From a virus (taxonomy: Duplodnaviria; Caudoviricetes): a DNA stretch of 29,778 nt. Under the pieces are notes generated by a model, which ran no database searches, was not told the origin of the DNA, and worked only from the letters and a program-made list of their open reading frames with translations. The position numbers were made by a program, and so were the translations under genes. Positions 3,561 through 29,778 of the stretch are shown piece after piece. The stretch is from IMG/VR virus record IMGVR_UViG_3300018030_000010, positions 1 to 29,778 of that record. The stretch is one strand, 5' to 3'. The number at the start of each line of letters is the position of its first letter. Positions within the stretch are counted from its first letter, which is position 1.

Positions 3561-3708
3561 ATTCTCCATTTAGGAATTTGGGGATTTAGGAATGAACCCT
3601 CACTTCATTCGGATTCGCGTTGAACATTTCAACCCATGTGAAGCGATTTAAGTTTGGCGTCCGATCTTTTGTGAGGACGCAATTCCTCAATCCCTCAATT
3701 CCTCAATT
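3561..3708. repeat. Family D element (TTTAGGAA x3 ... AATTCCTC x3) with family E hairpin (3595-3680) inserted at its centre
   Basis: Near-identical inverted copy at 13456-13611. Confidence 0.9.
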
Positions 3709-3814
3709 ATTTTATCTTGCTAAGCAAAGACACCCCAATCGCCAGGCCGATCATGAGAAAAAACGTCGCGCCAACTCCAAGCGTGCACAAGGGCAGTGTA
3801 ATCATTTCACCCAT
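3707..3814 (-). CDS. Possible 35-aa single-pass membrane peptide (MGEMITLPLCTLGVGATFFLMIGLAIGVSLLSKIK)
   Basis: Manually translated small ORF filling the gap; one hydrophobic segment followed by Lys residues. Confidence 0.4.
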   Translation of the reverse strand: MGEMITLPLCTLGVGATFFLMIGLAIGVSLLSKIK

Positions 3815-3831
3815 CACCCATTACCCGGCTC

Positions 3832-4368
3832 CTAAAAGGACCAATCATATCCAAGGGTCGAGTGGGCCTCGACCATGCGCGAGAGCGTAGCAATAGTTCC
3901 GTCCGGCAACGTCTTCGTCAGCGTCTCTCTTATAAATCCGCCCGTTGCCGCGTGGCCTAATATGGCATCGATATTTTTGAGATTATTCATTAGCGCCGGC
4001 CCCAGGACTGGGCGCATGGGCATCTTGCTCGTGCCGAATTCATGATAAACCATGACTTCGCTGTCTGAGCCGATAGTGGCTATATCGTTTTCCACTTCGT
4101 GGCTGATCGAGTCCCGGAGCGCTCCCGTGCGCCAGAGCGGATTGTCCGGAGGTGAGTATCCGAGTTTTTCTTTCTGCTCCAGCGTGCTTTCGGCAAGCGG
4201 CGCCCAGGCCGGAAAAGGATATGCTTCCGGCTGATATTCGCCGATTTCGGCTTTGGCAGTCTGCTCCACAATCTGCGCGCAAAGCTCCAGGCCCAAGTGC
4301 GATTGCTTGCCCTTCTCCGCGCAGTGGGTGAGGTAAACGGCAAATCCTTCCAGATCAAAAACTTCCAT
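3832..4368 (-). CDS. HK97 gp10-like / virion morphogenesis (neck, tail completion) protein
   Basis: WAPLAESTL, LWRTGALRDSISHEV, YHEFGTSKMPMRPVLGPA motifs. Confidence 0.8.
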   Translation of the reverse strand: MEVFDLEGFAVYLTHCAEKGKQSHLGLELCAQIVEQTAKAEIGEYQPEAYPFPAWAPLAESTLEQKEKLGYSPPDNPLWRTGALRDSISHEVENDIATIGSDSEVMVYHEFGTSKMPMRPVLGPALMNNLKNIDAILGHAATGGFIRETLTKTLPDGTIATLSRMVEAHSTLGYDWSF

Positions 4369-4383
4369 TATGCAAAGCCTTTC

Positions 4384-4548
4384 TCACCACGAAGAGCACG
4401 AAGAACACGAAGAAAATATAGAATCACCACTTTGGCGATAAAGAGCTGCTCCGATCGAGCGACCTGGTGATGCTTTTTTGAAGAAGTTTTCCCACTTTTG
4501 CCTTTCCTTTGTGCTCTTCACCGCGCTGCGCTCCTCCTTCGTGGTGAA
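4384..4548. repeat. Family A inverted element
   Basis: tcaccacgaagagcacgaagaacacgaag ... cttcgtggtgaa; ends 3 bp from the TGA of the frameshift product. Confidence 0.9.
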
Positions 4549-4551
4549 ATA

Positions 4552-4740
4552 TCATTCGCCCGCTGGCGGCTTAACGAAATCCATCCTGTCCAAATCGAAC
4601 TTATGCCCTTCCATTTCACTGAACATTATCGCAAACGCCCTTGCGCTTAGCGGGTTGAGCAGGAACGCCTCGTCGAGCCGAAGGCCGTTTTTCACGAGCC
4701 ACAGCCTCTCTCTTACGCGGTCGTCCCGGAGTAGTTTTTT
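4552..4740 (-). CDS. -1 frameshift extension (gpT/GT-like) of the tail assembly chaperone
   Basis: Slippery A-AAA-AAC at 4740-4734; -1 frame open for ~60 codons (LLRDDRVRERLWLVKNG...FVKPPAGE*) to TGA 4552-4554. Confidence 0.8.
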   Translation of the reverse strand, partial: KKLLRDDRVRERLWLVKNGLRLDEAFLLNPLSARAFAIMFSEMEGHKFDLDRMDFVKPPAGE

Positions 4741-5114
4741 AGTAATTCCTCGTCGATGGAAAATTTCGCCTGGTGTTTCACGGCAACCGGCATGAGCGCC
4801 TTTATGCCTTCATTGCCGAGCTGCTTTAAGACCACGCGCATCTGCGGCCTGGTCCTGGGCACCACAATTATCACATCATCTATCTGCGCCACGTATAAGG
4901 TCATCCGGGCCATCGAGGACGTCGCCGGGTTCCCGGCTTCGTTCCCGCCGATCGCGGCCATGAGTTCATATTCCTCCAGGATATCAGGGATCCGCGTCCG
5001 GATCTTCCGGCCCAGGTCGTCGGTTATTAACTCCGTATCGCCCGAAGGCTTGATGACCGTGGTTTTCTCTTCCTCCACCGGCGCCGTTCCCGTATCGTGC
5101 ATTGTGACTTTCAT
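4713..5114 (-). CDS. Tail assembly chaperone (gpG-like)
   Basis: 133 aa between tube and tape measure; slippery heptamer near 3' end. Confidence 0.8.
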   Translation of the reverse strand: MKVTMHDTGTAPVEEEKTTVIKPSGDTELITDDLGRKIRTRIPDILEEYELMAAIGGNEAGNPATSSMARMTLYVAQIDDVIIVVPRTRPQMRVVLKQLGNEGIKALMPVAVKHQAKFSIDEELLKNYSGTTA

Positions 5115-5506
5115 TCGTAGGTTCTCCCTTCACAATCATCGCTGATTATTCCGTCCCGGATCCATCCGTGATATGCCCCAAGGATATTGATGCTCGGAGA
5201 TACCGTGATTAATGGCGGTTCTCCTGTCACTTCCCAACCTTCATAAAAAACCCTGTCATGATTCCAGCACATGCCATCCACGCAAAAGACTTCTTTGCAT
5301 GGCATCCAGACCAGAACCGGTTCGCGGCGGGTATTGTGTTGCTTGTAAAAATCGGAAAGCCTGGGCGATTTCGACATCATGAACGGCCAATCGAGATAGC
5401 CGGCCGCGTCTCGGAACAGCTCAGAATGAAACCACATATCCCCGATCCGGAGATCCATTCCAATCATCCCCTTCCGCCATTCAATCAGCCTGCATGCCCA
5501 AGGCAT
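5111..5506 (-). CDS. Hypothetical protein with DUF6527-like C-terminus
   Basis: PPLITVSPSINILGAYHGWIRDG motif; stop overlaps chaperone ATG (ATGA). Confidence 0.6.
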   Translation of the reverse strand: MPWACRLIEWRKGMIGMDLRIGDMWFHSELFRDAAGYLDWPFMMSKSPRLSDFYKQHNTRREPVLVWMPCKEVFCVDGMCWNHDRVFYEGWEVTGEPPLITVSPSINILGAYHGWIRDGIISDDCEGRTYE

Positions 5507-5517
5507 TTCCCCTCCGC

Positions 5518-5546
5518 TCAGTCCTCAGTCCTCAGTCCTCAGTCCT
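5518..5546. repeat. Family I 7-bp tandem repeat (CTCAGTC x4)
   Basis: ctcagtcctcagtcctcagtcctcagtcct. Confidence 0.9.
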
Positions 5547-5551
5547 GCTCT

Positions 5552-5983
5552 TTACGCCGTCTTAAGCCGCCTGATCGCCACCCAGCTTATGTCCAGCTTG
5601 ACCGTTTTGTCGCCTTCCCAGGAGCCGGCGTTGTCGTATTTGAGCAAGACGCCGGGATATACATATTGGACAATGCTCCCGTTGGGGTTCTGGATTGTCT
5701 CCTGGATCATGCACGGCTGCTCCGGGACCCCGAGGTAATAGTTCGCCTCGAGTTGCGCGAAATAATCATCCAATACGCTGTCCTGGCGCTCGTATTCGAA
5801 CTTGCCGCTCCAGCCGTCGAAAAAGCGCACGTGCCTCGTTATGCCGTCCAGGCCTTTGACCTTTATTTCCGTCATGTCGGCCTTGGACGAAAAATGAGTA
5901 ACGAGACTCGAGATCAGCGGACCTCCCGGCGTCTGGATAACCAGGCTGACGTCCCGCCCTACACTGAAATTATTGATCGGCAT
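5552..5983 (-). CDS. Tail tube protein
   Basis: 143 aa beta-rich, immediately downstream of sheath; GGAG RBS. Confidence 0.85.
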   Translation of the reverse strand: MPINNFSVGRDVSLVIQTPGGPLISSLVTHFSSKADMTEIKVKGLDGITRHVRFFDGWSGKFEYERQDSVLDDYFAQLEANYYLGVPEQPCMIQETIQNPNGSIVQYVYPGVLLKYDNAGSWEGDKTVKLDISWVAIRRLKTA

Positions 5984-5999
5984 TTTATTCTCCTGAAAA

Positions 6000-6070
6000 T
6001 TTAGGAATTTAAGAATTTAGGAATTTAGGAATTCAATTCTTCAATCCCTCAATTCCTTAATCCCTCAATT
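6000..6070. repeat. Family D element (empty, no insert)
   Basis: tttaggaa-type units x4 then ttc(c/t)tcaa-type units x4. Confidence 0.9.
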
Positions 6071-6075
6071 CGCCC

Positions 6076-7623
6076 CTATTGCGGCGCGATCTGCGTGCTG
6101 ACCTTGTTCACCTGTACGCTCTGGCCGCCTTCCAGGTTTATGATGAACTTCTCCACTATGGACAGGTATGTGACCATCACGGAGGCCGTCATGTATCCCA
6201 GGGCCACCATGTTCTGCGGGTTGTTGCCCGCGTCGCATTCGACCGAAAAAGGTATCGTGCCGAGGCTGTTCCCGATCATGGGCGGGTTGATGGTCCATAA
6301 GTTCATGAGAAAGGCAGTGAGAGTCGCGGCTGCTTGCCGTTGCAGATCGAGGCTCTGCGTCTTGCCCACGTAATAGCCCATGCCGGCGTTGAGCGTGTAG
6401 GCGATGTAGTTCGTCATGCGCGTATAGTTGTCGCCGTGAATGACCTGGTTGCTCGACGTGTTCCAGCCGAACCGGGCCCCGAAATAATTGCCGCCGGGCA
6501 CCGGGTTGCAAATCAGGTCGATCCCCGCCTGGCCCAGGGCCTGCAAGTCGGCAGCGGAGTAAACCTGGTTCTGCATGCTCTTCTGGGTCCCGACGATCCC
6601 GTAGAGCTGCTTATTCAAGGTCGAATTCTGCGGGGAGAGGTTCGAGAGAAGCCCCGCTATAAACCCCTGCGGCGAGATGAGCCGCACCAGGTTGTTGACC
6701 GTATCGTTGAAATAGATCCAGTCGCCAAACAGGAGTTTAGCCGTGTAGGAATCGATGCCGGCTGAGGCCTTCGTCGCCGTGGCATTACTGATCGTGTCCC
6801 CGGCAGGCCCGACCATGATCATATAGACGCCTTCGCTTAGTCCGAAGGCTACCTGCGTTGTCCACGTGGCCGAAGTATCGCAGTCGGCGAGCATCCCGAC
6901 CGATGCCCCGGTATTTCTGAGAGCGTACATGCCCTGCCTCGGGATGGTGTCCTGGCCGAGAAGGGTGTTCGCCGTAACTCCCGATGCGCCGTCCGTTCCT
7001 CCGGAAAGAGTGACTGTCCCCGGCGAAGGTGCGGCAGTCCCGGCCCCGGCGCTCGCCACGATGAGCTGGCTCGGACCCCGAAGACCCGATATGCCGTTAT
7101 TTATGGCGCTTGCGATGGCAAGCCAGACCGCATTTCCGCCGAGCCCGGCGGCCAGGTTGTCAAAGACTTCGGGCATGACGCCCGGCATGGAAACCGTGGC
7201 CCTCCAGCTATTGGCGGCGGACCCCGCCGCGATGGTGACCTGGAGGCCGCTTCCGAGGCTCCCGGTATATTTCGATGTCACCGTGAGGCAGGTGGATTGG
7301 ATGGTCGTATTCGCCGCCAGGTCCGTGCCGTCCGTAACGCGCACGCACCTGAAATTGCTCGCCCCCTGAAGGACCGCCCCGGCAACGGCCGTACCCATGT
7401 CGTACTTGCGCGCCTGGATCTGCCCGAAAAGCTGCGCGTACTGCCACATGTCTCCGATGATCGTGGGCGAATTGACCGGCCCCCAGGCCGCAGTTCCCAC
7501 AACGCCCAGGATGTTCGTCGGCAGACCGTTTATGAGGTAATTGCTCGGCGGAATGATCTGCACGTACACGTCGGGCACGATAAGCGCCGTTAAATTGATT
7601 TGTCCCTGCTGAACTACAGGCAT
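6076..7623 (-). CDS. Contractile tail sheath protein
   Basis: 515 aa; PDVYVQII, GVVGTAAWGPVNSP, LSGGTDG, C-terminal IVEKFIINL. Confidence 0.92.
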   Translation of the reverse strand: MPVVQQGQINLTALIVPDVYVQIIPPSNYLINGLPTNILGVVGTAAWGPVNSPTIIGDMWQYAQLFGQIQARKYDMGTAVAGAVLQGASNFRCVRVTDGTDLAANTTIQSTCLTVTSKYTGSLGSGLQVTIAAGSAANSWRATVSMPGVMPEVFDNLAAGLGGNAVWLAIASAINNGISGLRGPSQLIVASAGAGTAAPSPGTVTLSGGTDGASGVTANTLLGQDTIPRQGMYALRNTGASVGMLADCDTSATWTTQVAFGLSEGVYMIMVGPAGDTISNATATKASAGIDSYTAKLLFGDWIYFNDTVNNLVRLISPQGFIAGLLSNLSPQNSTLNKQLYGIVGTQKSMQNQVYSAADLQALGQAGIDLICNPVPGGNYFGARFGWNTSSNQVIHGDNYTRMTNYIAYTLNAGMGYYVGKTQSLDLQRQAAATLTAFLMNLWTINPPMIGNSLGTIPFSVECDAGNNPQNMVALGYMTASVMVTYLSIVEKFIINLEGGQSVQVNKVSTQIAPQ

Positions 7624-7635
7624 GTTGCCCTCCTG

Positions 7636-7699
7636 AATTTAGGGATTTAGGGATTTAGGAATTCAATTCCTCAATTCTTCAATCCCTCAATTCCTGAAT
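7636..7699. repeat. Family D element (empty)
   Basis: aatttagggatttagggatttaggaattcaattcctcaattcttcaatccctcaattcc. Confidence 0.9.
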
Positions 7700-7712
7700 T
7701 TGTTTATTGATT

Positions 7713-7898
7713 TCATCCCACCATCCCTATAGCGGTCAAAATCGTAAGCGTCGGGCTCGGATCGGCCCCGTGAACCACAAAGGCCGCGTCGTCATCGTCC
7801 AATATGGCCGCTATTTCCACGGCGTTCGTAATCATGGCGCCGACCTGGTGGGCCCCCGACACCGAAGTGAATGGACTGGTCACAATGTAAGTTGACAT
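7713..7898 (-). CDS. Small hypothetical virion protein upstream of sheath
   Basis: 61-aa ORF filling the gap between two repeat elements; small genes are common at this position in myoviruses. Confidence 0.6.
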   Translation of the reverse strand: MSTYIVTSPFTSVSGAHQVGAMITNAVEIAAILDDDDAAFVVHGADPSPTLTILTAIGMVG

Positions 7899-7913
7899 AG
7901 GCCAAAACCTTTC

Positions 7914-7998
7914 CCACCACGAGCACGAAGATCATGAAGAAGGGCTTTTTGTATAAATAAATCTTTTCCTTAGTGTCCCCTTCGTGCTTCGTGGTGAA
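7914..7998. repeat. Family A inverted element (degenerate)
   Basis: ccaccacgagcacgaagatcatgaag ... cttcgtgcttcgtggtgaa. Confidence 0.85.
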
Positions 7999-8005
7999 AT
8001 GCTTT

Positions 8006-8872
8006 TCATGCATAAACGCTCGTCTCCGGCGCATTCGCCGGCGTGATATTTTGCTGCACAACCACGACTTCCCATTCTTCCTCGGTAATCGTGGTCGCAT
8101 AATCGACGCTGTAGAGCAGATCGCGCCGGTAAATTCCCATCTTCTGCTCGGAATCGTTCAGCGCCGACCCATGATAGATGATCCGCGCCGCATATCCGTC
8201 CGGAAGGGTAAGGAACCTGGGAGTCGAGATCGCCGGGTCGACCACTTTGGCCACGGCGTCTCTCAGCGCCGGACTTCCGGCCCATATCCCGGCCATGAAT
8301 ATGCGTTCCTGGTTCCGGATCCCTTTCGCCGCAACGCCGGAACCCCCGACCCTCGCCGCCGCGATCCGCGCGGTCGCCGGCAGGATTATCTGTGCGCCGC
8401 TCGACGTGGTCCCTGGAATTACTGCATTTATGAGCGCCGCCAGGGCCGCTGCTGCGCTCAAAAGCGTATCGCCGGAGACGGTCTGATAAACGAACGCCAG
8501 CCCGTTTGCGAGGATGGCAATATTTTGTCCCGGCCCGGGAGTGCCGCCGAGAGTGACCGTGACGCCGTTTATGGCCGCCGTGATCGTCGGCGCCGGCGCC
8601 GCCTGAACCTGCCAGGTCTCCATGTACCTGGTGGTATTTCTGTCCGCTTTCCACGGATAGATGTTCACATGCACGATCGGTGTGCGCGAATCCCCCGGCT
8701 TTAAGCCTTGCGGCAAATCCTTATCGAGTTGCTGCGGATTCGGCCAGCCGGGATAAACTGGTACGATAGGTCCGGCAACGCTCGGCGCCGTAGGACCCGA
8801 TACGCCGCCCGGATAAAGCGCCGCCTCAACCGTTTGGGCCAGCACGTTCATGACATCGGAAAGATCAGCCAT
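8006..8872 (-). CDS. Putative tail terminator/completion protein with inserted beta-rich domain
   Basis: MADLSDVMNVL, VYPGWP, YRRDLLYSVDYAT; position between head closure and sheath. Confidence 0.65.
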   Translation of the reverse strand: MADLSDVMNVLAQTVEAALYPGGVSGPTAPSVAGPIVPVYPGWPNPQQLDKDLPQGLKPGDSRTPIVHVNIYPWKADRNTTRYMETWQVQAAPAPTITAAINGVTVTLGGTPGPGQNIAILANGLAFVYQTVSGDTLLSAAAALAALINAVIPGTTSSGAQIILPATARIAAARVGGSGVAAKGIRNQERIFMAGIWAGSPALRDAVAKVVDPAISTPRFLTLPDGYAARIIYHGSALNDSEQKMGIYRRDLLYSVDYATTITEEEWEVVVVQQNITPANAPETSVYA

Positions 8873-8884
8873 TCAAAACCCTTC

Positions 8885-9133
8885 TCACCACGAAGATCAC
8901 GAAGGAACCCTCACTTCTTTCGGATTCGCGTTGAACATTTCAACCCATGTTAAATACTTCAAGTTCGCGTCCGATCTTTTGTGAGGACGCGCGAAAAAAT
9001 CTTTATGCGCTTCGCCGGCTGCCCGGCCACGTGCTATAGCACGTGCGCCGGCCCTGCGGGGTGCGGGGAAGTCACTTCCCCGCGGTCCTTATTTTTTGCC
9101 CTTCCTCTGTGTCCTCTGTGCCTCTGTGGTGAA
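8885..9133. repeat. Composite: family A left arm + family E (8906-8990) + family F palindromic element (9002-9085) + family B right arm
   Basis: Each module matches copies elsewhere (3595, 13492, 17504, 19018). Confidence 0.88.
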
Positions 9134-9215
9134 TGCTTTTGTTTTCAGCCAAAAGCCAGATTACGAAAAGTGCTATAAAAACTGCTAAAAGTTCCATCTC
9201 TCTTATCTTTTCCAC

Positions 9216-9246
9216 TCAGTCCTCAGTCCTGAGCAACTCAGTCCTC
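9216..9246. repeat. Family I 7-bp repeat
   Basis: ctcagtcctcagtcctgagcaactcagtcct. Confidence 0.8.
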
Positions 9247-9250
9247 TCCC

Positions 9251-9601
9251 TTAGGCTTCCATCCTCACGCAATGTAGCATGAACCCGAATGGATTCGGAT
9301 ATGCCGAAACTACCTGGAATCTTCTGCCAAGATCGTCTGTCACAAAATCCCGGTCCTGGACCGTCGTCGCGTCGAATCCGGGAGCAAGCCGGAAATAGAT
9401 GCTCCATTGGGCCTTTGTCACGTCCAGGGGCAAATTCGGGGCGTTCTTTTGTCCTATTCTCCTTGGCTGTATCCCGGCCGCGATCTCCGAAACGATCACC
9501 GTCTCGGAGGCCTCCACGTCGCCTCCATATCCTTGCAGCCCGGCCCCGGTCTGCGCTGTAGCGCGCGTTATGCTGATCGTCCGGTCGTATAAAAAGCTCA
9601 T
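9251..9601 (-). CDS. Putative head closure / head-tail adaptor protein
   Basis: 116 aa beta-rich; RDFVTDDLGRRFQVVS; synteny. Confidence 0.7.
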   Translation of the reverse strand: MSFLYDRTISITRATAQTGAGLQGYGGDVEASETVIVSEIAAGIQPRRIGQKNAPNLPLDVTKAQWSIYFRLAPGFDATTVQDRDFVTDDLGRRFQVVSAYPNPFGFMLHCVRMEA

Positions 9602-9609
9602 AGGACCCT

Positions 9610-9726
9610 TTCACCACAGAGGCACAGAGGACACGGAGAAAAGAAACTGGCTTGGCTGAAGACAAAAATCTTTTGCATTTGCTTCCCGTTGATCTTCTCT
9701 GTGCTCTTCGTGCGCTTCGTGGTGAA
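9610..9726. repeat. Hybrid element: family B left arm, B/A chimeric right arm
   Basis: ttcaccacagaggcacagaggacacggag ... ctctgtgctcttcgtgcgcttcgtggtgaa. Confidence 0.85.
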
Positions 9727-9730
9727 TACT

Positions 9731-10651
9731 TTATCCCAGCGGCATTACCACCCACGGCCTCAGCATTGCCTTCACGTCCTCGCTTAAATTCGATGCAACG
9801 AAGTTTTGGATGGACGTCTCTCCGGTCCGGCTGCTTTTTACCGCCCCGTACATGGGATTCATCTGCAGGGCCGTTATAAGCTGGGCCGTACCCAGCTTAA
9901 CGCCGTCCGGAAGGTTCGCATACGTGAATCCGGATATGTACCGGATCTTGGTCTCGGAATAATACGCAATCATTATCCCGGCCGGGATCCAGATCTGCCC
10001 GGTCGCCCGGTCGACCCCGCACGTCGCCGGATCCCATATTTCCCAGGCGGGCGGTCCGCCGAACTTGCTCAAGGCCGCGAGCAGGTTGAAATCATCGACG
10101 TTATAGTTCCCCGCATCTCCGCGCCGCCCGTAACCGTACCTGCCCGTGCCGCCAATGACGCGCACTACCGGCGTCCGGGACAGGATCGTAAGCGGCCGGT
10201 CCTTCGGCATATATTTCTGCTCGGTGATGACCAGGCCGCTCTCCATCGTGCAATTTGCCCCGTGCGAAAACATTACATTCCGTAGAGTTAGGCTGAGCTG
10301 ACCCGGAGGCGTTCCGGTTATCGATACGACAATGCAAGCCTCGGCCGCCGCCGGATTTGCCCTGTCCAGGATGAGCACGTCCCCTACCTGGAGCATAAGC
10401 AGAGGCCCCGTGACCTGTACAACGACATTTGCTCCGGGCACTATTGCTCCCACGCTTGCAAGGGAAAACTCCGCAGAAAGCGCCTGCATCCAGGACGGCT
10501 GCCCGGCGCCGTCGGGCGCCCAGATAAGCCCTTCGGGCCTCCTCAAATAGGCGCTGTCCAGCATGGCGGACGCCTGGTACACCTGGGGCGCCGTTGTATT
10601 TGCCACGCCGAACGTGGCATAGTCCTGCGCTTGCAGGTAAATCGAAGCCAA
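9731..10651 (-). CDS. Putative head-tail connector protein
   Basis: 306 aa after capsid; ASAMLDSAYLRR and YISGF..LPDGVKLGTAQLI...VKAMLRPW pattern typical of gp6/gp15-like connectors; TTG start. Confidence 0.7.
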   Translation of the reverse strand: MASIYLQAQDYATFGVANTTAPQVYQASAMLDSAYLRRPEGLIWAPDGAGQPSWMQALSAEFSLASVGAIVPGANVVVQVTGPLLMLQVGDVLILDRANPAAAEACIVVSITGTPPGQLSLTLRNVMFSHGANCTMESGLVITEQKYMPKDRPLTILSRTPVVRVIGGTGRYGYGRRGDAGNYNVDDFNLLAALSKFGGPPAWEIWDPATCGVDRATGQIWIPAGIMIAYYSETKIRYISGFTYANLPDGVKLGTAQLITALQMNPMYGAVKSSRTGETSIQNFVASNLSEDVKAMLRPWVVMPLG

Positions 10652-10666
10652 CTCGAAACCCCATTC

Positions 10667-10804: not shown

Positions 10805-10811
10805 TTCGCCC

Positions 10812-12022: not shown

Positions 12023-12029
12023 GAGTTTT

Positions 12030-13455: not shown

Positions 13456-13611
13456 AATTGAGGGATTGAAGGATTGAGGAATTAAAGAATTGCGTCCTCA
13501 CAAAAGATCGGACGCCGAACTTAAATCGCTTCACACGGGTTGAAATATTCAACGCGAATCCGAATGAAGTGAGGGTTCATTCTTAAATTCCTAAATTCCT
13601 AAATGGAGAAT
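13456..13611. repeat. Family D + family E composite, inverted relative to 3561-3708
   Basis: E reverse complement at 13492-13577; end motif taaatggagaat equals reverse complement of 3561-3572. Confidence 0.9.
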
Positions 13612-17503: not shown

Positions 17504-17670
17504 TTTATGCGTTTCGCCGGCTGCCCGGCCATGTGCGGAACCCTCACTTCGTTCAGGTCCGCGCTGAGCATTAGAACCAGCGTTCGGTACTTCAAACTCA
17601 TGCCCGATCTTTTGTGAGGGCGCGCACGTGCGCCGGATATTGAGGGGTGCGGGACGGTCACCGCTCCGCG
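17504..17670. repeat. Family F element with family E (17539-17623) inserted at the centre of its CACGTG palindrome
   Basis: Flanks match uninterrupted F at 9002-9085. Confidence 0.88.
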
Positions 17671-21811: not shown

Positions 21812-21820
21812 AAAAAAACT

Positions 21821-22627: not shown

Positions 22628-22636
22628 AAATCTTTC

Positions 22637-22797
22637 TCACCACGAAGATTGTTGGCGTAAAAACAAAAAATCTATCACCACGAAGAGCACGAAGAGCACG
22701 AAGGAAAAAATTCATAGGGAGAGGCAATGCCTAAAAAGTTTTGGTTTTTATCCATAACGAGTCTTTTCTTCGTGTCCTTCGTGCCCTTCGTGGTGAA
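22637..22797. repeat. Family A inverted element with an extra partial left arm
   Basis: tcaccacgaag ... tcaccacgaagagcacgaagagcacgaag ... cttcgtgtccttcgtgcccttcgtggtgaa. Confidence 0.9.
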
Positions 22798-22805
22798 TTC
22801 TTCTC

Positions 22806-23066
22806 TTATTCCGTGATCGCCGCATTCGGCTGAGCAGGCGGCGGAATCGGAAGCGGCGCGGTCCACGGCGGCGTGGTGAAGGCTTCCGATGTCCCGGCTT
22901 TATTGACCGCGACGATAACGGCCTTATATTCCGTCCCCGGAACCGCAATAAAATCGACCAGGGCCGAACCGTCTGCCTCGGGGATTATTTGCCCATTCGG
23001 GATCGGAAGTCCCTGCACCTGGTAATACTCAACGTTTTCAAGAGGTTCGATTTTAAGCTGTGCCAT
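22806..23066 (-). CDS. Small fibronectin-III-like beta protein with Pro-rich tail
   Basis: VEYYQV, PGTEYKAVIVAVNKAGTSE resembles FN3 consensus; GGAGG RBS. Confidence 0.55.
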   Translation of the reverse strand: MAQLKIEPLENVEYYQVQGLPIPNGQIIPEADGSALVDFIAVPGTEYKAVIVAVNKAGTSEAFTTPPWTAPLPIPPPAQPNAAITE

Positions 23067-23093
23067 TTCACTTTCCTCCCGTTATTGATGCCT

Positions 23094-23126
23094 TTGGTTC
23101 GCCGCCGTGGAAGGCGGCGCTACCTC
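23094..23126. repeat. Family G REP-like copy; perfect 33-bp inverted match to 24004-24036
   Basis: ttggttcgccgccgtggaaggcggcgctacctc. Confidence 0.92.
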
Positions 23127-23475
23127 ACTCTTCATGACTTATTGATGCTGAAGGTTGCAAAGGCGCTCCTCCCGCTCCCGCATTGAGGGTCCGGTTTAGC
23201 TGCTGGACCTGCCCTGCAATCTTCGACGGGTCCCCATCGATTAGGTCCTGCATCTCCTGCTCGATCTTAGGGCCAACAACATCAAATGTTTTTCTAATAG
23301 GCTCGGGCAAATCGGCTTGTACGCCCTGCCAGCCGGCGATGAAAAACTGAGAGAGGAACTCAAGTACATAATTCGGCCGCAATTGCGTTGATTTGCCAAT
23401 TGCCTCGGAGAGATAAAAGAGCAAATAACCCACTGGGCAGATGACGTAGATCCAGATCGGGATTTCGACTGTCAT
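23125..23475 (-). CDS. Hypothetical membrane protein
   Basis: N-terminal hydrophobic segment; ATGA overlap with upstream gene; AAGGAG RBS. Confidence 0.65.
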   Translation of the reverse strand: MTVEIPIWIYVICPVGYLLFYLSEAIGKSTQLRPNYVLEFLSQFFIAGWQGVQADLPEPIRKTFDVVGPKIEQEMQDLIDGDPSKIAGQVQQLNRTLNAGAGGAPLQPSASISHEE

Positions 23476-23885
23476 TTCGCCTGCTCCTTGTTCTTGTGCG
23501 CCCAGAAAGCATCATCCCCCCAGGACGCGACGAATTTGTAGTATTCAAACGCTGCGGATCTGCATGCCACGCGCTGAACGTGCTCTATGATTCCGTTGAG
23601 GACACAATGCTCATCGACTGCGAGGAGTAAATTATAAAGGAAGCACCGGTCTGCGATCCTCTTATGCTTCTCCGTTTCCCCGAAATGGTAGCAGGCATCA
23701 TGGCCACAGCAGGCGGGGTAGAAATCGACGCCCAGGATCGAATCGGGGACGAGTTTGCGCTTCATGCTCTCCGGCCCGCAGCCGTTCGATATGTTCTTGA
23801 GCTGCTCGGAGCTGAGTTCAGCCACAATCCGGGGTAGCATCATGCCGCCGGGAGTGTTTACGATCTCGGCAAATACATCGCTCAT
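23472..23885 (-). CDS. Phospholipase A2-like protein
   Basis: NGCGP...DFYPACCGHDACY (C-x-x-H-D-x-C-Y catalytic motif), downstream ADRCF and YYKFV; start 23885 chosen. Confidence 0.65.
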   Translation of the reverse strand: MSDVFAEIVNTPGGMMLPRIVAELSSEQLKNISNGCGPESMKRKLVPDSILGVDFYPACCGHDACYHFGETEKHKRIADRCFLYNLLLAVDEHCVLNGIIEHVQRVACRSAAFEYYKFVASWGDDAFWAHKNKEQAK

Positions 23886-24100
23886 TGCGTTTTTCTTTCC
23901 CTTTCCCACTCCCGAAACCGTTCGCAGAGGTCGCGACACTCCGATATCCCCGCGATTACTCGATAATTCACGCAGTTATAGCAGGGACAATCGAATGGGA
24001 TGGGAGGTAGCGCCGCCTTCCACGGCGGCGAACCAAGCGGTCGGCAACCTTCCCCTCCCTGCTTCTCGCTTCCCGCTTCCATCTCCATCACCAATCCCAT
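23882..24100 (-). CDS. Small Cys-rich hypothetical protein
   Basis: CPCYNC...CRDLCERFREW; stop overlaps PLA2-like ATG (ATGA); N-terminal half runs through repeat sequence. Confidence 0.5.
   Translation of the reverse strand: MGLVMEMEAGSEKQGGEGCRPLGSPPWKAALPPIPFDCPCYNCVNYRVIAGISECRDLCERFREWERERKTQ
24004..24036. repeat. Family G REP-like copy
   Basis: gaggtagcgccgccttccacggcggcgaaccaa. Confidence 0.92.
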
Positions 24101-24236
24101 CTGCGCTGAAAGTAGAGCATCTTCTTCCCTGTCTGCGGCAGGACTGTATCCTGTTCCCCGAATCCATTCACTCCGGTCCAGCCGGGCCAGCCGGCCGGGA
24201 CCTCATCGCTCCCGGCGAGTTGATCCAGCTCCGCCG

Positions 24237-24860
24237 CTACTTCGAGGAGCCAGCGGGGGTAGCCGGCTGCGTAGGGACCGCAGGCGCGACTCCTGGGTTC
24301 GTGGCTGCTTGAGCTGCCGCTAAGACGCTTCCCACTTTCGAAGAGGCGTCCGTTACTGCTTTATCCACAATCGCAGCCTGTGCCGCGACGCTCGTGTCCG
24401 ACGCCTTTGCGGCCAGCAGGTTATCAAGGTTACCGACTTCCTTGCTTGCCAACGCTATTGCGGGACCGGCTGAGGGGTCGGCTATCGTTGCAACCGCCAG
24501 GCCCACCGGGGCGATAAGGCCCGCAACATAGGTATGATAGAATTGGCTCATGGTGGCCCAATTGGTTCCAGAGGATGAAGGCTGAGCTGCCGTGGAGGGT
24601 GCGTTCGTCGAGCGCTGAGTGGTGGCGCAGAAACTGCCGCCACATGCGAACGTGGCGATCAATACAATTGCGATTGCGAACCTGGCGCCGCCAACGGGCA
24701 TGAATTTGCGGTATGCTCTGCGTTGTCCAAACAGGATGAAAATGAGAGCGGCCACAAACAATAATCCAAGGGCTATCATTGGCGCGATGGTCAACAGAAC
24801 GAAGATGAGGACCAAAGCGATCAACATAAAACCGACTGCAATTCCGATAAGCGTTTTCAT
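24237..24860 (-). CDS. Membrane protein, possibly lysis-related
   Basis: Three hydrophobic segments, then Ala-rich helical region; GAGGAG RBS. Confidence 0.6.
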   Translation of the reverse strand: MKTLIGIAVGFMLIALVLIFVLLTIAPMIALGLLFVAALIFILFGQRRAYRKFMPVGGARFAIAIVLIATFACGGSFCATTQRSTNAPSTAAQPSSSGTNWATMSQFYHTYVAGLIAPVGLAVATIADPSAGPAIALASKEVGNLDNLLAAKASDTSVAAQAAIVDKAVTDASSKVGSVLAAAQAATNPGVAPAVPTQPATPAGSSK

Positions 24861-24910
24861 TTATTTCTCCTCACTGCTCATTCTTCACTGTTCACTGCCC
24901 TTAATCCCCC

Positions 24911-24955
24911 AAAACAAAAAAAGCCCGGCCCCACGCTTTCGCGTGGTGACCGGGC
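24911..24955 (-). terminator. Intrinsic terminator downstream of the Com-like gene
   Basis: Minus strand gcccggtcaccacgc-gaaa-gcgtggggccgggc followed by a U-tract. Confidence 0.75.
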
Positions 24956-24981
24956 ATCGTGTGCCTCTGGGGCGACTGGAA

Positions 24982-25049
24982 GAGTTTTGAGTTTCCAGTT
25001 TCGAGTTTTTAGTAATTATTCAAAACCAAAAACTCCCAACCAAAAACTG
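24982..25049. repeat. Family K 7-bp inverted element (AGTTTTG-like ... CAAAAAC-like)
   Basis: gagttttgagtttccagtttcgagtttttag / caaaaccaaaaactcccaaccaaaaact. Confidence 0.7.
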
Positions 25050-25112
25050 CCCTTCCCGTCCGGCGGCTTTATTTCTCCGCTTCGGCCCTCAAGGGGGCTC
25101 TAAATTGTCACG

Positions 25113-25322
25113 TTAAAAAATATCAGGCGCCTCGGCATTGTCAAGAACAATTTCAGATTTTAATTCGTTATTGCTCAATAAAAAAATAAGCTGCTTGCAT
25201 CCGCACCTATGGCAGATGATTTCGAGGACGCCGACGAAATCAGCCCTCCCGAGAAGGCGGCTGCATCGCCTGCAACGCACTTTCTCCAGTTGCGTTCGTA
25301 CGCTTCCCCCTCCTAAAAGCAT
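25113..25322 (-). CDS. com: Mu Com-like zinc-finger regulator
   Basis: VRCRRCSRLLGRA...LEIICHRCG matches the Com family pattern; start codon uncertain. Confidence 0.75.
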   Translation of the reverse strand: MLLGGGSVRTQLEKVRCRRCSRLLGRADFVGVLEIICHRCGCKQLIFLLSNNELKSEIVLDNAEAPDIF

Positions 25323-25508
25323 TTAGACCTTCCTCGCCGGTATATGATTAGTAAGTAAGTTTTCCCGGTTTTTCCGGCTGCCCACGCCTCCAAGGGCGAG
25401 GCCGGGCGCATCTTTTGGCTTAAGCCGATCCATGCCTGCCCATAAAAGGCCCATTATCCCGCTTCCAACCGCTACGCCTGCCATGAAAGCTACCGCCATT
25501 CCGAGCAT
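25323..25508 (-). CDS. Small membrane protein
   Basis: N-terminal hydrophobic helix; abuts Com-like gene. Confidence 0.5.
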   Translation of the reverse strand: MLGMAVAFMAGVAVGSGIMGLLWAGMDRLKPKDAPGLALGGVGSRKNRENLLTNHIPARKV

Positions 25509-25556
25509 CGCCTTCCCTCTTTTATCCTACCTCCGCCCTCTTACCTCCGACCTCCG

Positions 25557-25838
25557 TTACGATGCCCTCCTCAGCACGCTCACTTTTCCCGGCTTATCGA
25601 CAACCAGGTGCAGGGCCCCGCCGCCTTTGAGTATCTTCGCGGCCAGCTCGAAATCCTCCGGGCTCTCAAGGTAGCGCGCGAAAGTGATATGAGTGTATTC
25701 GCGGATCCGCAAACCAATGAACCGCTCGGCCATGTGATCGAGGTATCCGTCCCCTTTGACCTGGTGATGCGGCGTAATCCCCGCATTCACCATCTCCCGC
25801 CTGTTGTCTATTTTCCGCTGTAAAATGTCCGTAATCAT
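25557..25838 (-). CDS. Hypothetical protein
   Basis: 93 aa, AAGGAG upstream; YLDHMAERF...ITFARYLESP. Confidence 0.65.
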   Translation of the reverse strand: MITDILQRKIDNRREMVNAGITPHHQVKGDGYLDHMAERFIGLRIREYTHITFARYLESPEDFELAAKILKGGGALHLVVDKPGKVSVLRRAS

Positions 25839-25861
25839 TTCATGCTCCTTTCAAAAGATGC

Positions 25862-25889
25862 TCACCACAGAGGCACAGAGGGCATGGAG
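25862..25889. repeat. Family B left arm, unpaired locally
   Basis: tcaccacagaggcacagagggcatggag. Confidence 0.85.
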
Positions 25890-25900
25890 GGAAAAAATCT

Positions 25901-26170
25901 CTAATTGATCCTTTTCCACTGCCCATTATCCTGTACTTCGTATTTACGGCCGTCCGACATTTCGACAATTTCTCCAGGCTCGTGCAATGTCACGATTGGC
26001 TCGCCGGATTTTTGTGTTTCAAGCTCAACCGCCGGGCCAACCATGTGCTCGCTCACCTGATCGAAAAGTGCCCGTAATTGGTCAACAGCCACAGCATACT
26101 TTCCGGTTACTTCCTCAAATTTTTTCAATGCTTCCGGCCTTAAGAATGGAGATTGTTGCAACTGAGCCAT
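25901..26170 (-). CDS. Hypothetical protein bracketed by repeat arms
   Basis: 89 aa, AAGGA RBS, more AT-rich than neighbours. Confidence 0.65.
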   Translation of the reverse strand: MAQLQQSPFLRPEALKKFEEVTGKYAVAVDQLRALFDQVSEHMVGPAVELETQKSGEPIVTLHEPGEIVEMSDGRKYEVQDNGQWKRIN

Positions 26171-26182
26171 GACTTTTCCTTT

Positions 26183-26245
26183 CTTCGCGGCTTCGCGTCT
26201 TCGCGTGAAATGCTTGAAGTCGCCGCCGTGGCAGGCGGCGCTACC
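26183..26245. repeat. Family C right arm (26183-26209) plus family G copy (26221-26245)
   Basis: cttcgcggcttcgcgtcttcgcgtgaa; cgccgccgtggcaggcggcgctacc, which contains the gemA stop codon. Confidence 0.85.
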
Positions 26246-26825
26246 GTCTCGGCCTATGTTCTTCGATAAACCTCATGATCTTCGGATCGTCAAACTGCTT
26301 GTCCCACCAATCCTTCCCGCACAGTTTCTCCATGCGATGCTCAAACATCTTCTTGAGGCCTTCTATAACGAGCCACGCCTCGCGCGAGGTCCTCACTCTG
26401 TCGATCCTGAGCCGCTTTTCCATCCAGCGCTTGAGGCCGTCGCGGTATTCCCAATCGATCAGCGCGGCCAGGGCGTCGATTTTCGCAAGCTCCTGGAAGC
26501 TGGCCAGGCGCACGAGCTTTCCATCCTCGCGCCCCGTTTCCCGCTGCGGGCGGCGGCGCCGCACCCAACCTGAATAGCTGCTCCCGGTCCTCCGCGTTCT
26601 TTTCTTCGTCTCGAACCCCAAAATCTCGAAGCGCTCGATTAGCCTTGTCGCTTCCATTCTTGTGAGCTGCGTGCAGCTCGATACCTTGAACTGCTCCAGG
26701 AGCATGGCCCGGTATGTATCATCATCCATGCCCAGTTCCTTTTGGGCGATCTTGATGATCTGGATCTGTCCCCGGCTGATCGGGTCCGGGAATTTGTTTG
26801 TTGATGTTTGTGTGCTGCGATTCAT
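26241..26825 (-). CDS. gemA: Mu GemA (gp16, DUF1018)-like regulatory protein
   Basis: QIQIIKIAQKELGMDDDTYRAML...SSCTQLT; LAKIDAL; AWLVIEGLKKM; start 26825 chosen. Confidence 0.88.
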   Translation of the reverse strand: MNRSTQTSTNKFPDPISRGQIQIIKIAQKELGMDDDTYRAMLLEQFKVSSCTQLTRMEATRLIERFEILGFETKKRTRRTGSSYSGWVRRRRPQRETGREDGKLVRLASFQELAKIDALAALIDWEYRDGLKRWMEKRLRIDRVRTSREAWLVIEGLKKMFEHRMEKLCGKDWWDKQFDDPKIMRFIEEHRPRR

Positions 26826-26839
26826 TCGAGACCCCTTTT

Positions 26840-26925
26840 CCACCACGAAGAATGCGAAGGTTTTTAGAATAAAAATCCTGATTTTTATGACTTTTCTTCC
26901 TGATCTTCGTGCCCTTCGTGGTGAA
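26840..26925. repeat. Family A inverted element overlapping the endolysin 3' end
   Basis: ccaccacgaagaatgcgaag ... cttcgtgcccttcgtggtgaa. Confidence 0.88.
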
Positions 26926-27541
26926 TGCTTTGTCCCAATCCCTTTTCGATATATACGGCTTCGGCTTCGCGCCTCTCCTGCAAGCTCTTCGTATCCGGCC
27001 ACAGCCGCTTCATTGCCCGCAGCTCGGCCGGGATCGCCGCCCACTTGCCGCCGGCGACGTCCTTGCGTATATTCATCATCTCTATCCGGCTCGGGCCGTA
27101 TACCGATGAGCCCCTATTGAACACAACCGACAGCAAGGCCTCCTGGACGCATTGTGGCGCCTCTTCGACCCCAGGGAAGGCTACCTGTGCCATCTTGAAA
27201 TAACGAGGCACCGTGTAGCGCCTGAACTGCGCCAGGGCGATTTCCCACGGAATGGAAACCTCCTGCATTTGGGGCAAAAACCGCTTCGCAGCATCTCCCT
27301 TCACCCCTACCATCGTCGCCAGCTTCGCAAGCGCTTCCACGGAGAGAAATTCCTGCCATTCCTGCATCAAGTCTGCCGTTGGATGCTGGCCCACGTCCCA
27401 GCCGATGCCGATAGTGATTCCGGACGTTGTATCTTTGCCGCCCGGCACGGTCGGATGGACGCAAAATTTGCTGTAATATTTCTCGCCGCCGCCCACTTCC
27501 CAATCGAGTAGAAGCTGCAATCCCTCAGATGTCAGTTGCAT
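26885..27541 (-). CDS. Endolysin (lysozyme-fold muramidase, pesticin C-terminal/GH24-like)
   Basis: LLLDWEVGG, SGITIGIGWDVG, ALLSVVFNRG, RREAEA. Confidence 0.85.
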   Translation of the reverse strand: MQLTSEGLQLLLDWEVGGGEKYYSKFCVHPTVPGGKDTTSGITIGIGWDVGQHPTADLMQEWQEFLSVEALAKLATMVGVKGDAAKRFLPQMQEVSIPWEIALAQFRRYTVPRYFKMAQVAFPGVEEAPQCVQEALLSVVFNRGSSVYGPSRIEMMNIRKDVAGGKWAAIPAELRAMKRLWPDTKSLQERREAEAVYIEKGLGQSIHHEGHEDQEEKS

Positions 27542-27561
27542 CGATTTTTCCTTTCATTTTG

Positions 27562-27627
27562 TTCACGCGAAGACGCGAAGCCGCGAAAATTCGAAAGCAT
27601 CTCACGCGGAGACGCGGAGCCGCGAAG
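27562..27627. repeat. Two tandem left arms (family C and C')
   Basis: ttcacgcgaagacgcgaagccgcgaa and tcacgcggagacgcggagccgcgaag. Confidence 0.85.
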
Positions 27628-27629
27628 AG

Positions 27630-27866
27630 TTATCGAACACTCCAGGCAATCCCTTTTTCCTGGGCCAGCATCGCAAGGTACGCGCATGCATCATATTGGT
27701 AATCAAAACACACGCTGCGGCCGCCTGTTGTGCATGGATACCACCGGCCCGCAATCTCGATCTCTACGCCCCACAGGATGCGCCTGCTAATTAAATCCAC
27801 CCATCGCGCCGGCCGCATTCTGACTCCCTGCTTGCCTGCCTTCGGCTTTCTCTTTTTTTTGAGCAT
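27630..27866 (-). CDS. Hypothetical protein
   Basis: 78 aa, AAGGAG RBS. Confidence 0.6.
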   Translation of the reverse strand: MLKKKRKPKAGKQGVRMRPARWVDLISRRILWGVEIEIAGRWYPCTTGGRSVCFDYQYDACAYLAMLAQEKGIAWSVR

Positions 27867-27898
27867 CGCCTATCGCTCCTTAAAAACTTAAAAATGTC

Positions 27899-28011
27899 TC
27901 ACCACGAAGAGCACAGAGAGCACGAAGATATCTTTTCGAGAAAAAGCTCCCGGATCTGTCTGCCTTAAATGCTTAGTCATTCTTCGTGTCCTTTATGTCC
28001 TTCGTGGTGAA
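27899..28011. repeat. Family A inverted element (one B-type unit)
   Basis: tcaccacgaagagcacagagagcacgaag ... cttcgtgtcctttatgtccttcgtggtgaa. Confidence 0.88.
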
Positions 28012-28015
28012 GGCC

Positions 28016-28720
28016 CTACTGCAGCCCCTCCAGCACCCGGCTCAATTCACTCGAAAGCTGCTTGATCTTCGCCACCTGGTCCCGGCGCACAAAAATATCG
28101 CCGAACTCCTCCTGGATCCGCTTGATCTCGGCCGCATATTTGGCCGGGTCTCCTTTTACCTGCTGAAGGAGCCCGGTCACGACCGCCACCCATGCCGGAG
28201 GACCGTCCTCGCCGGGTCCCGGAACATCGGCGATATCGCGGTGCATCTTTGCCTCGCCTTCAAACCCAAGACTGAGTTGCACCATTGCGTCGGCATAAGC
28301 GGCTTTGCGGCCCCGCGCGGCTTTGACCAGGCCCGTCATTGCGCGCCGGTGAAACGCCCTGTAATTACCTTCGACGTCTTCCTTGCTCGCCGGCAGCCAG
28401 TATCCGCCGCCGTTTCCGGCCATGCAGCAGATTGATATGCCGTGCGTTATAATGAGGCTGTTTATGGTCTCCCGCACCTGCCGTTTGCAGGATTCGATCC
28501 GCGTGCGCTCTTCATTCCAGTTCGGCGTTTCCGATTCCCAGATCGTCGGATAGATGATCTGCGCCAGGGCATTGGACGATAGCCTTCCCGCGTGCCCGAG
28601 GGGTTTTCCACTTTCGTCGTATCCAGCCTGTACCAGCGCAGCCAGTATCAGCCGTTCGTTGTCATCGAGCCTGTTTCCATCCAGCGCCGCCCGGGCGCTT
28701 TTAAGAGATCCGATTTCCAT
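28016..28720 (-). CDS. Hypothetical winged-helix-like phage protein
   Basis: KRQVRETINSLI..HGISI...GGGYWLP pattern; AAGGAG RBS. Confidence 0.65.
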   Translation of the reverse strand: MEIGSLKSARAALDGNRLDDNERLILAALVQAGYDESGKPLGHAGRLSSNALAQIIYPTIWESETPNWNEERTRIESCKRQVRETINSLIITHGISICCMAGNGGGYWLPASKEDVEGNYRAFHRRAMTGLVKAARGRKAAYADAMVQLSLGFEGEAKMHRDIADVPGPGEDGPPAWVAVVTGLLQQVKGDPAKYAAEIKRIQEEFGDIFVRRDQVAKIKQLSSELSRVLEGLQ

Positions 28721-28743
28721 TGTCCGCTCCTTTGAAAAGCTTT

Positions 28744-28828
28744 TTCACCACGAAGGCCACGAAGCTCACGAAGAAAAAGATATCTTCATTTTTTACTCTT
28801 CCTCTTCTTCGTGTCCTTCGTGGTGGAC
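28744..28828. repeat. Family A inverted element overlapping the 3' end of 28793-29458
   Basis: ttcaccacgaaggccacgaagctcacgaag ... cttcgtgtccttcgtggtgga. Confidence 0.88.
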
Positions 28829-29458
28829 CAATGCCACTCCCAGGATTTCGCCCATCAAATTTCCAACGGCTCGCGCCGCAGCCTTTTCCTTCCATTGCCC
28901 GCAACCCAACATTTGATTCCCAGAAGTCGGGCTGCTTTTTACTTCACATCCTCTCGGTGGCCGGAATGATTCACACGTAAAACAACCTCTTCGGGTTGGT
29001 TTATGCGCAGCCGTGGAAGGCTGCGCTACCGTATCCTCTTCGCGGCTTCGCGGCTTCGCGTGAACCTGCTCTCTCTCTGCCTGCGCTGCGATTCCGCGCG
29101 CCTTCGTCCACACTACCTTTCTCAGATAGTTGTGGTTCTCCAGCTCCCTTTTGCCCTTCTCGCACATTTCCAACATCACTTCGGCCCACAGCTCCGGAGG
29201 CGCCGGCCGGGTTTCCCCGCCCTCCCAATGGACAGAACCGGCAGCAACCAGGTCTTTTAGCTCCTGGAGTATCCGCAGCGCCCGCTTCCACGACAATCCC
29301 CGCGTGCCGATCCTGAATAGCCCCAGATAGTTCGCCGCATGATGCTGAACATGATGAGGCAGCCCGGACATCACGGCGCTGAACTGCCGCACTGCCGCAT
29401 CGTTTTCCCATCCTTCCAGGCTGTATGTTCCCCCGCATCCGGGGCAGACAAGCTTCAT
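28793..29458 (-). CDS. Mu-like phage hypothetical protein with N-terminal CxxC
   Basis: MKLVCPGCG..YSLE, YLGLFR...LSWKRA, LENHNYLRKV; contains in-frame G and C repeats at 29007-29063. Confidence 0.75.
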   Translation of the reverse strand: MKLVCPGCGGTYSLEGWENDAAVRQFSAVMSGLPHHVQHHAANYLGLFRIGTRGLSWKRALRILQELKDLVAAGSVHWEGGETRPAPPELWAEVMLEMCEKGKRELENHNYLRKVVWTKARGIAAQAEREQVHAKPRSREEDTVAQPSTAAHKPTRRGCFTCESFRPPRGCEVKSSPTSGNQMLGCGQWKEKAAARAVGNLMGEILGVALVHHEGHEEEEE

Positions 29459-29778
29459 AAATTCTCACCGGTAGCGCCGCCTTGAACCCTCACTTCGTTC
29501 GGATTCGCGCTAACACTTGCGGCCGACGTTAAACGATTCAAGTTCGCGTCCGATCCTTTTTGAGGGCGCACGGCGGCGGAAGATCCTTGCGTCCTCGGCC
29601 AAAATCCGGGAGTTGTCCAGTCCTGGTCGGCCATCTCCGCCCCCGGAGGCAAATCATAAAAATGCCTTTCCTTTTTCACGCGGCTACACATACCGAGCCT
29701 CAATTGCCCCTGGGCCTCGAGTAGTTCGCGCTCATATTGCCATTCTGATCTGAAAAGGCCGCAGGCTTCGACGCTGCC
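29455..29778 (-). CDS. 3' part of a hypothetical gene (frame open to window edge) carrying an in-frame G+E insertion
   Basis: Frame open 29778-29455; TGA overlaps next ATG (ATGA). Confidence 0.5.
   Translation of the reverse strand, partial: GSVEACGLFRSEWQYERELLEAQGQLRLGMCSRVKKERHFYDLPPGAEMADQDWTTPGFWPRTQGSSAAVRPQKGSDANLNRLTSAASVSANPNEVRVQGGATGENL
29470..29578. repeat. Family G palindrome with family E (29485-29569) inserted in its loop
   Basis: ggtagcgccgcctt[gaaccctcac...tgagggcg]cacggcggcg. Confidence 0.9.

Follow-up and report, generated by a model that had tools for sequence, protein, structure and literature searches.

An 85- to 89-bp non-autonomous mobile DNA with unusual end architecture in a clade of Syntrophobacteraceae

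How gene-less repeats of less than 100 bp spread in bacteria is an open question. Elhai and colleagues are said to have described, in 2008, the small dispersed repeats (SDR) of Nostoc, which reportedly are 21 to 27 nt long, are mobile, land in tandem repeats and palindromes, nest in one another and have no known enzyme. In the IS200/IS605 insertion sequences (IS) and in repetitive extragenic palindromes (REPs), a tetranucleotide guide, located 5' of a hairpin foot, picks the cut by pairing with the terminal tetranucleotide (PMC6006769, PMC8266576). Also relevant here are IS110 elements that target REPs, such as the orphan ssr9 module of ISPpu9. We describe E, a noncoding element of 85 to 89 bp found in a virus record of 29,778 bases (IMGVR_UViG_3300018030_000010); the whole record was analyzed and is referred to as the window. 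E is real, new, non-autonomous mobile DNA with an unusual end architecture. It works like REPIN- or SDR-type mini-elements, yet the comparisons below place it outside REP/IS200, IS110, the classical MITEs (miniature inverted-repeat transposable elements) bearing terminal inverted repeats (TIRs), and the attC sites of integrons.

The window contains five alignable, noncoding copies of E, each 86 or 87 bp in length. Copy 1 (3594..3680, plus strand; 87 bp, ends GAACCC...GGACGC) occupies the center of a D-type tandem-arm repeat, copy 2 (8905..8990, plus; 86 bp) the left arm of an A-type repeat, off its apex, and copy 3 (13492..13578, minus; 87 bp) again the center of a D repeat. Copy 4 (17538..17623, plus; 86 bp, ends GAACCC...GGGCGC) lies at the center of the F palindrome, and copy 5 (29484..29569, plus; 86 bp) in the loop of a GTAG-REP (G) that spans 29471-29578. 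A covariance model gave exactly five full matches in the window (E values of 6e-23 to 2.5e-19), and the remaining 7 of its 12 rows were the same five copies on the opposite strand and two weak hits (E values of 0.23 and 0.6). The first-pass annotation of this DNA had reported five copies, each inside another repeat, with no target-site duplication and with empty D and G paralogues in the same window, and all of this was corroborated; its coordinates also hold, except that each copy begins one base earlier.

The empty D paralogue (6004..6070, no strand assigned) carries at 6033-6034 a TC that is absent from the filled D sites, and the empty GTAG-REP paralogue (24007..24030, plus) carries at 24020-24021 a CC that is absent from the filled site. 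When E is taken with its full ends, GA...GC, two bases are therefore lost at the D and G sites, rather than the single replaced base noted earlier; these are the sites, as distinct from F and A, for which the loss was fixed from the window. The terminal C was assigned to E because it also is present where the empty site has none (for example, GA and GG sites). D with copy 3 is an inverted copy of D with copy 1 (147 nt, 93% identity). From this likeness the two probably represent one insertion coamplified with its D host, and the number of independent insertions in the window is thus about four. Four independent runs yielded contigs that matched, without differences, the left ends of copies 1, 2, and 3 (26, 44, and 26 letters into the element) and the whole of copy 4. 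Because these contigs match across the E junctions, they argue against an assembly artifact at the left ends of copies 1 to 3 and for copy 4.

The anatomy of the element was derived from an alignment of 62 diverse copies of 85 to 89 bp and is given here on copy 2. A left terminal hairpin, H1 (8905..8927, minus), which has tandem GA/GA, a stem of 6 bp and, for most of the family, C(GNA)G as its loop, is followed by guide 1 (GCGT, 8928..8931, plus), which is complementary to the final four bases of E. A variable middle of nearly fixed length (8932..8962, unstranded) leads to guide 2 (GTTC, 8963..8966, plus), the complement of the first four bases, and to the right terminal hairpin, H2 (8967..8990, plus), which also has a 6-bp stem and tandem GA/GA. 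The abutted right|left joint of E is present twice inside the element in reverse-complement form, one copy being made up of guide 1 and positions 8922-8927.

Both terminal hairpins covary (90.6% of cells paired, 73 changed on both sides), as do the cross-guides, in which the tetranucleotide on the inner side of each hairpin pairs with the one at the opposite terminus of the element (96% paired, 61 two-sided changes); 0 of 500 shuffles reached the observed value in either case. The long stem proposed in the first-pass annotation (CCTCAC/GTGAGG with TCGGA/TCCGA) did not fare as well: it is conserved without covarying, and 247 of 500 shuffles reached its value. Among 219 non-tandem units, end base 84 agreed with both internal copies in 181 (G.T wobbles adding 18), whereas base 86 did so in 205 and base 2 in 178. 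The three-way match persists in subfamilies ending in GGACGC, GGGCGC, GGCCGC, GTGCCC, GCGCCC, and GGCGTC, natural subfamilies having recoded the ends at least five times. The left and right terminal dinucleotides may differ (GG versus CC, GA versus TC), yet each fits its guide.

The two hairpins are predicted to form on opposite strands. H1 reads on the plus strand as TC/TC dinucleotides, which are GA/GA on the minus strand, and its C(GNA)G loop was found on the minus strand in 45 of the 62 copies. Its mismatches, read on the plus strand, comprised 46 A.C versus 4 G.T, and on this basis H1 is predicted to form on the minus strand. H2, which has GA/GA on the plus strand in 62/62 copies, is predicted to form there. 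GNA loops and sheared GA pairs are stable in DNA, and the opposite-strand GA/GA motifs fit DNA strands better than one RNA. No target guide at a fixed position was found in the middle (no match in 145 sites), which showed no transition excess (300 versus 357). A CRISPR reading of the middles was rejected because they are related to one another, and hairpin flip/flop of the kind expected for a rolling-hairpin replicon was rejected because all candidate flips proved to be normal ends on the other strand.

Like the ends of IS200/IS605 and the REP/REPIN-RAYT systems (PMC6006769, PMC8266576, PMC3116915), E is non-autonomous, hairpin ended, present in high copy number, and mostly intergenic; the tetranucleotide 5' of its hairpin foot pairs with the terminal tetranucleotide, there is no target duplication and, as in REPINs, the element is two-fold symmetric. 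Unlike them, it has no GTAG tag or fixed target tetranucleotide, its two hairpins differ in sequence, it loses 1 to 4 target bases, and a cognate or adjacent Y1 gene was not encountered at 30 Y1 loci in 5 genomes. Its guides, located at the inner feet, pair entirely by Watson-Crick rules and have the other end of the same strand as their partner, a geometry absent from the sections compared. With the orphan ssr9 module and other REP-targeting IS110 elements, E shares small size, the lack of an open reading frame (ORF), a location in REP hairpins, and the lack of a long duplication (10.1101/2025.01.17.633520; PMC11208160; ISPpu10, 10.64898/2026.03.19.712850). Those elements keep one core dinucleotide at both ends and one target, whereas E has unmatched dinucleotides and dozens of unrelated targets, deletes target bases, and has no bridge-RNA-type target guide. 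The IS110-type core shared by both ends and the target was found in E only in subfamily e (GG/GG).

A classical TIR MITE mobilized by a DDE enzyme also differs from E, which has no target-site duplication, is inverted only in its subterminal CCTCAC/GTGAGG, and showed no autonomous long copy in the loci screened. The attC consensus is RYYYAAC...GTTRRRY with L boxes. In E, AAC and GTT lie 12 to 13 nt apart and are not conserved, and none of five E-rich genomes had an integron integrase over the cutoff, so the attC-like chemistry suggested earlier was not upheld. Compared with the Nostoc SDR as these are reported, E is likewise tiny and nested in repeats but is 86 nt long, with two covarying end hairpins and a self-splint.

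Insertion of E is accompanied by the loss of target bases. Comparison with empty sites, which are paralogues and make single rows of the loss table approximate, revealed a loss of 1 to 4 bases, often 2, and no duplication. Outside E, two bases were lost in 14 of the 29 rows with a match for a1 and in 11 of the 23 for a2; of the 63 insertions of subfamily b into E, 53 had lost three bases, and sites within the right hairpin of E had lost four. The cleanest pair is a REP located after a GIY-YIG gene, which is empty at loci L289 and L293 and filled, with loss of TC, at L301, L288, and L292. At L061, a local duplication revealed a three-base loss at a non-hairpin site. No orthologous empty allele was found among the 15 joints inspected of 89 or in viral contigs.

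Target contexts fell into 111 classes, of which 41 with an E-derived flank were dropped (cluster peeling being imperfect), leaving 70 outermost classes. By a conservative test, the site lay in some repeat in 34/70 classes compared with 54/300 controls, and in a hairpin loop (stem of at least 6 bp) in 9/70 compared with 8/300. The base before E was T in 47 classes, C in 12, G in 11, and A in none, and the base after it was A in 51, G in 11, C in 6, and T in 2, with controls near even at both positions; insertion occurs mostly at pyrimidine^purine. The repeat counts and the REP that is empty at some loci and filled at others agree with the earlier proposal that E is mobile and parasitizes other repeats. 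The accompanying idea that targeting depends on structure holds in that hairpin tips are enriched, but it does not hold as a tip-only rule, as 61/70 classes lie elsewhere and the flanking bases follow a rule of their own (never A before E, A after it in 51/70).

E nests in itself at several fixed positions, giving tandem arrays and nested stacks, and subfamily b occurs in 26 host classes. Non-repeat insertion sites were observed at L061 and L368/L527. All 78 distinct tandem junctions (78/78) had exactly two bases between the cores, 61 of the right-end type and 17 of the left-end type. Subfamily e has GG at both ends and preferred left flanks of the form GGC^..^A (6/8), which resemble its own end joint; its loci are L006, L228, L576, L578, L581, L583, L586, and L587. 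Within genome G070, single E variants track single host repeats. Coamplification of E with its host repeats is evident, and gene conversion among E copies is possible.

Our preferred reading, held tentatively and with a probability of roughly 0.4, is that E, a noncoding element of one Syntrophobacteraceae clade, moves as single-stranded DNA by means of a trans-acting enzyme, predicted to be HUH (Y1)-like, and of end guides that it encodes itself. On each strand the GA-mismatch hairpin at the 3' terminus would fold, and it would be lengthened by 4 bp as the tetranucleotide at its 5' foot pairs with the first 4 nt of that strand. Both termini would thereby meet on an internal splint that would define the cut sites, and the enzyme would cut at the splinted termini. 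The target would be cut in a staggered manner, on each strand mostly 5' of A, and the two 3' ends of the element would be joined there, after which the intervening 1 to 4 nt would be trimmed and the gap filled. The preference for repeats may stem from their exposed single strands or from frequent cutting, and coamplification with mobile host repeats would then inflate the bias. An HUH-like enzyme is the first choice because the logic of a hairpin with a 5' tetranucleotide guide is shared. The HUH-type chemistry of the first-pass annotation is in this respect plausible, although the search for the enzyme gave no result.

Several points weigh against an HUH-like enzyme acting on splinted ends. 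The 73 and 61 two-sided changes reflect about 5 to 7 changes at the level of subfamilies rather than hundreds of events, and relatedness is not taken into account by the shuffle control. Y1 transposition is not known to lose target bases, whereas E deletes 1 to 4 nt. Known Y1 transposition also is strand specific (PMC8266576), whereas E is two-fold symmetric. Y1 genes were found in 73/81 family genomes irrespective of E. Of the 30 Y1 loci from 5 genomes, some of these genomes being incomplete, none of the 15 with flanks read has E-like ends, and the sole E that a motif scan of all 30 detected was inserted near one of them; it is possible that the enzyme acts in trans. Lastly, no joint with both dinucleotides was seen, and the 2-nt spacing at 78/78 tandem junctions is equally predicted by a recombinase with a two-base core.

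A bolder claim, which we regard as somewhat unlikely, is that E is the first representative of a class of mini-elements. These would encode, on both strands of their DNA, the splint that joins their own ends; the ends would be recodable, and an enzyme with no relation to known transposases would paste the elements into staggered cuts at the cost of target bases. E is a compact testable substrate: the three-way covariation leads to precise predictions of compensatory mutants and of one specific joint in the circle. Should the splint indeed determine where the cuts fall, the enzyme would be one that joins DNA ends of freely changeable sequence; if the enzyme is a known one, E would be a new MITE-like family of modest interest.

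The alternative that survives best, although we consider it unlikely, is that E is a non-autonomous substrate of a recombinase with a two-base stagger (IS110 DEDD or serine) that tolerates mismatched cores, the dinucleotides of the element winning on repair. Such an enzyme predicts the exact 2-nt spacing of the 78/78 tandem junctions in both of the forms observed (61 right type, 17 left type). The target consensus Y-NN-R fits E's own C-NN-A joint, the loss seen most often outside E is of two bases in subfamilies a1 (14/29) and a2 (11/23), and subfamily e combines GG at both ends with the GGC^..^A preference (6/8 left flanks). Orphan ssr9 modules of ISPpu9 provide a precedent in REPs (10.1101/2025.01.17.633520). 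However, IS110 elements have the same core at both ends and at the target (PMC11208160; 10.1101/2025.01.17.633520), whereas E subfamilies b and d differ, and losses other than two bases (1, 3, and 4 nt) are frequent. In E, the two internal copies run antisense to one and the same strand, in contrast to the left and right donor guides (LDG/RDG) of bridge RNAs. Moreover, the ends at 24 of 27 IS110 loci, those that were read, are unlike E, and G070, a possibly incomplete genome with 74 right ends, has no resolvase-family hit.

Next in order, and rather unlikely, is that E is a patch captured where nucleases of the host repeats (GIY-YIG, PD-(D/E)XK) break the DNA, with its targeting amplified by comobility and gene conversion. 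E does occur in REPs that flank GIY-YIG genes in genomes G001 and G002, and the variable target loss fits trimmed breaks; GIY-YIG enzymes leave a 2-nt 3' overhang. That D with copy 1 and D with copy 3 form one composite, and that single variants in G070 track single host repeats, also is in line with comobility. Against capture, the units found have precise boundaries at both ends of E (both being a requirement of the unit finder), and insertions occur at non-repeat sites (L061, L368/L527), at several fixed self-sites and, for subfamily b, in 26 host classes. Conservation of the end guides would be left unexplained.

It is improbable that E moves via an RNA, its ends held by the splint, that is copied into nicks by a reverse transcriptase (RT). 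Each of the five E-rich genomes tested encodes RTs, the middle varies greatly, and target-primed copying can delete target bases. The two GA/GA motifs and the wobble bias nevertheless indicate opposite strands, there is no Rfam match, the middle has no transition excess (300 versus 357), and the RT loci read were mostly group II intron-like, none with E ends. Least probable, and largely refuted as a sole rule, is purely structure-directed insertion into hairpin tips by attC or HUH chemistry on one long E hairpin: tip sites are about five-fold enriched (9/70 versus 8/300) and 4/5 window copies lie at a palindrome center, but 61/70 site classes are away from a hairpin tip, the long stem does not covary, and no integron integrase exceeded the cutoff.

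A parent element was sought in the E-bearing genomes. Long copies with an ORF between the same ends, for which the first-pass annotation had proposed a search, were not found among the loci screened, where part of the copies were read and a parent with diverged ends would escape. Among the IS110, Y1, RT, GIY-YIG, integron integrase, and IS91-plus-integrase loci read in five E-rich genomes, none had E-like ends, and a motif scan, the only method applied to the 30 resolvase-family loci, revealed no gene with such ends. The recurrent neighbors of E were an IS1182 with unrelated ends and ordinary housekeeping families. The annotation had named a match to the end of a known IS or to a noncoding RNA family among the findings that would overturn its reading, and neither was found: none of the seven Rfam 15 hits in the window at E values of ≤5 overlaps a copy of E. 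The literature searched, which did not include ISfinder, subscription journals, or preprint supplements, contained no prior description of E.

The IS1182-family element of G002 resembles E in that it inserts at the tip of a REP, one that is sister to the REP targeted by E in the same genome. It has its own TIRs, a 4-bp duplication, and a DDE transposase, and its ends are unrelated to E. Its insertions were seen at L144, L145, L147, L148, L158, L161, and L165. Multicopy IS110 elements of G001, G002, and G070 also lie in dispersed repeats, including A-type arms, and have ends unrelated to E (L231-L256). IS1182, IS110, and E in the same repeats amount to layered parasites on parasites.

E is restricted to one clade of Syntrophobacteraceae, soil and peat bacteria, some of which carry more than 100 copies. 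A 19-base left-end pattern matched 114 stretches in the genome collection. By eye, 91/114 continue as E, in records titled Syntrophobacteraceae, Syntrophobacter, or delta proteobacterium; the other 23, from other taxa, share the first hairpin motif and nothing more. The right-end pattern was present in 16/81 family genomes, the richest having 139, 135, 126, 104, and 74 matches, and the reversed right-end control pattern gave 0 matches in the same 81. The covariance-model search in relatives, suggested at the outset, was positive in 19/96 genomes of the order and, among 151 genomes drawn from the phylum, matched the seed genome alone; this survey scored only the best 29 to 46 candidates per genome. 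No E match was found in plasmid or phage records.

The core of the left hairpin of E recurs in unrelated taxa, several times inside other palindromic repeats (L030, L034, L048, L063, L068, L079, L085, L090, L094, L113, L129, and L131), so that this core may serve widely as a reusable hairpin module of DNA. At L031 (2428-2515) and L050 (563-686), two left halves of E were observed fused head to head, one joint falling within a GTT/AAC motif and the other within the left hairpin, which suggests inversions or deletions between E copies.

A Pfam scan of 32 ORFs in the window identified portal, terminase, morphogenesis protein, and Mu GemA genes and no transposase. The intergenic spaces of this prophage are crowded by several repeat families (A, B, D, F, GTAG-REP, and 7-mer arrays), many spaces having at least one. 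In a phage relative of 65 to 75% identity, the repeats are absent or different at the four positions compared, and at the positions of copies 1 and 2 it has neither E nor the repeats that host E. Because genome G061 carries a relative of the prophage, the host of the latter probably belongs to the E-bearing clade.

Copy 5 lies in frame at the 3' end of a minus-strand open frame (29455-29778), and E is able to sit in frame within long open frames, a two-base loss giving a net gain of 84 nt. Of 161 E contexts, 23 fall within frames of at least 150 codons, many of them probably spurious; the in-frame cases include L012, L028, L051, and L093/L376, of which L093 is a Pfam amidohydrolase gene with a nested E stack. 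An unrelated second insert of about 30 bp was observed in the same REP loop as E, beside the GIY-YIG gene, at L296 and L288/L292.

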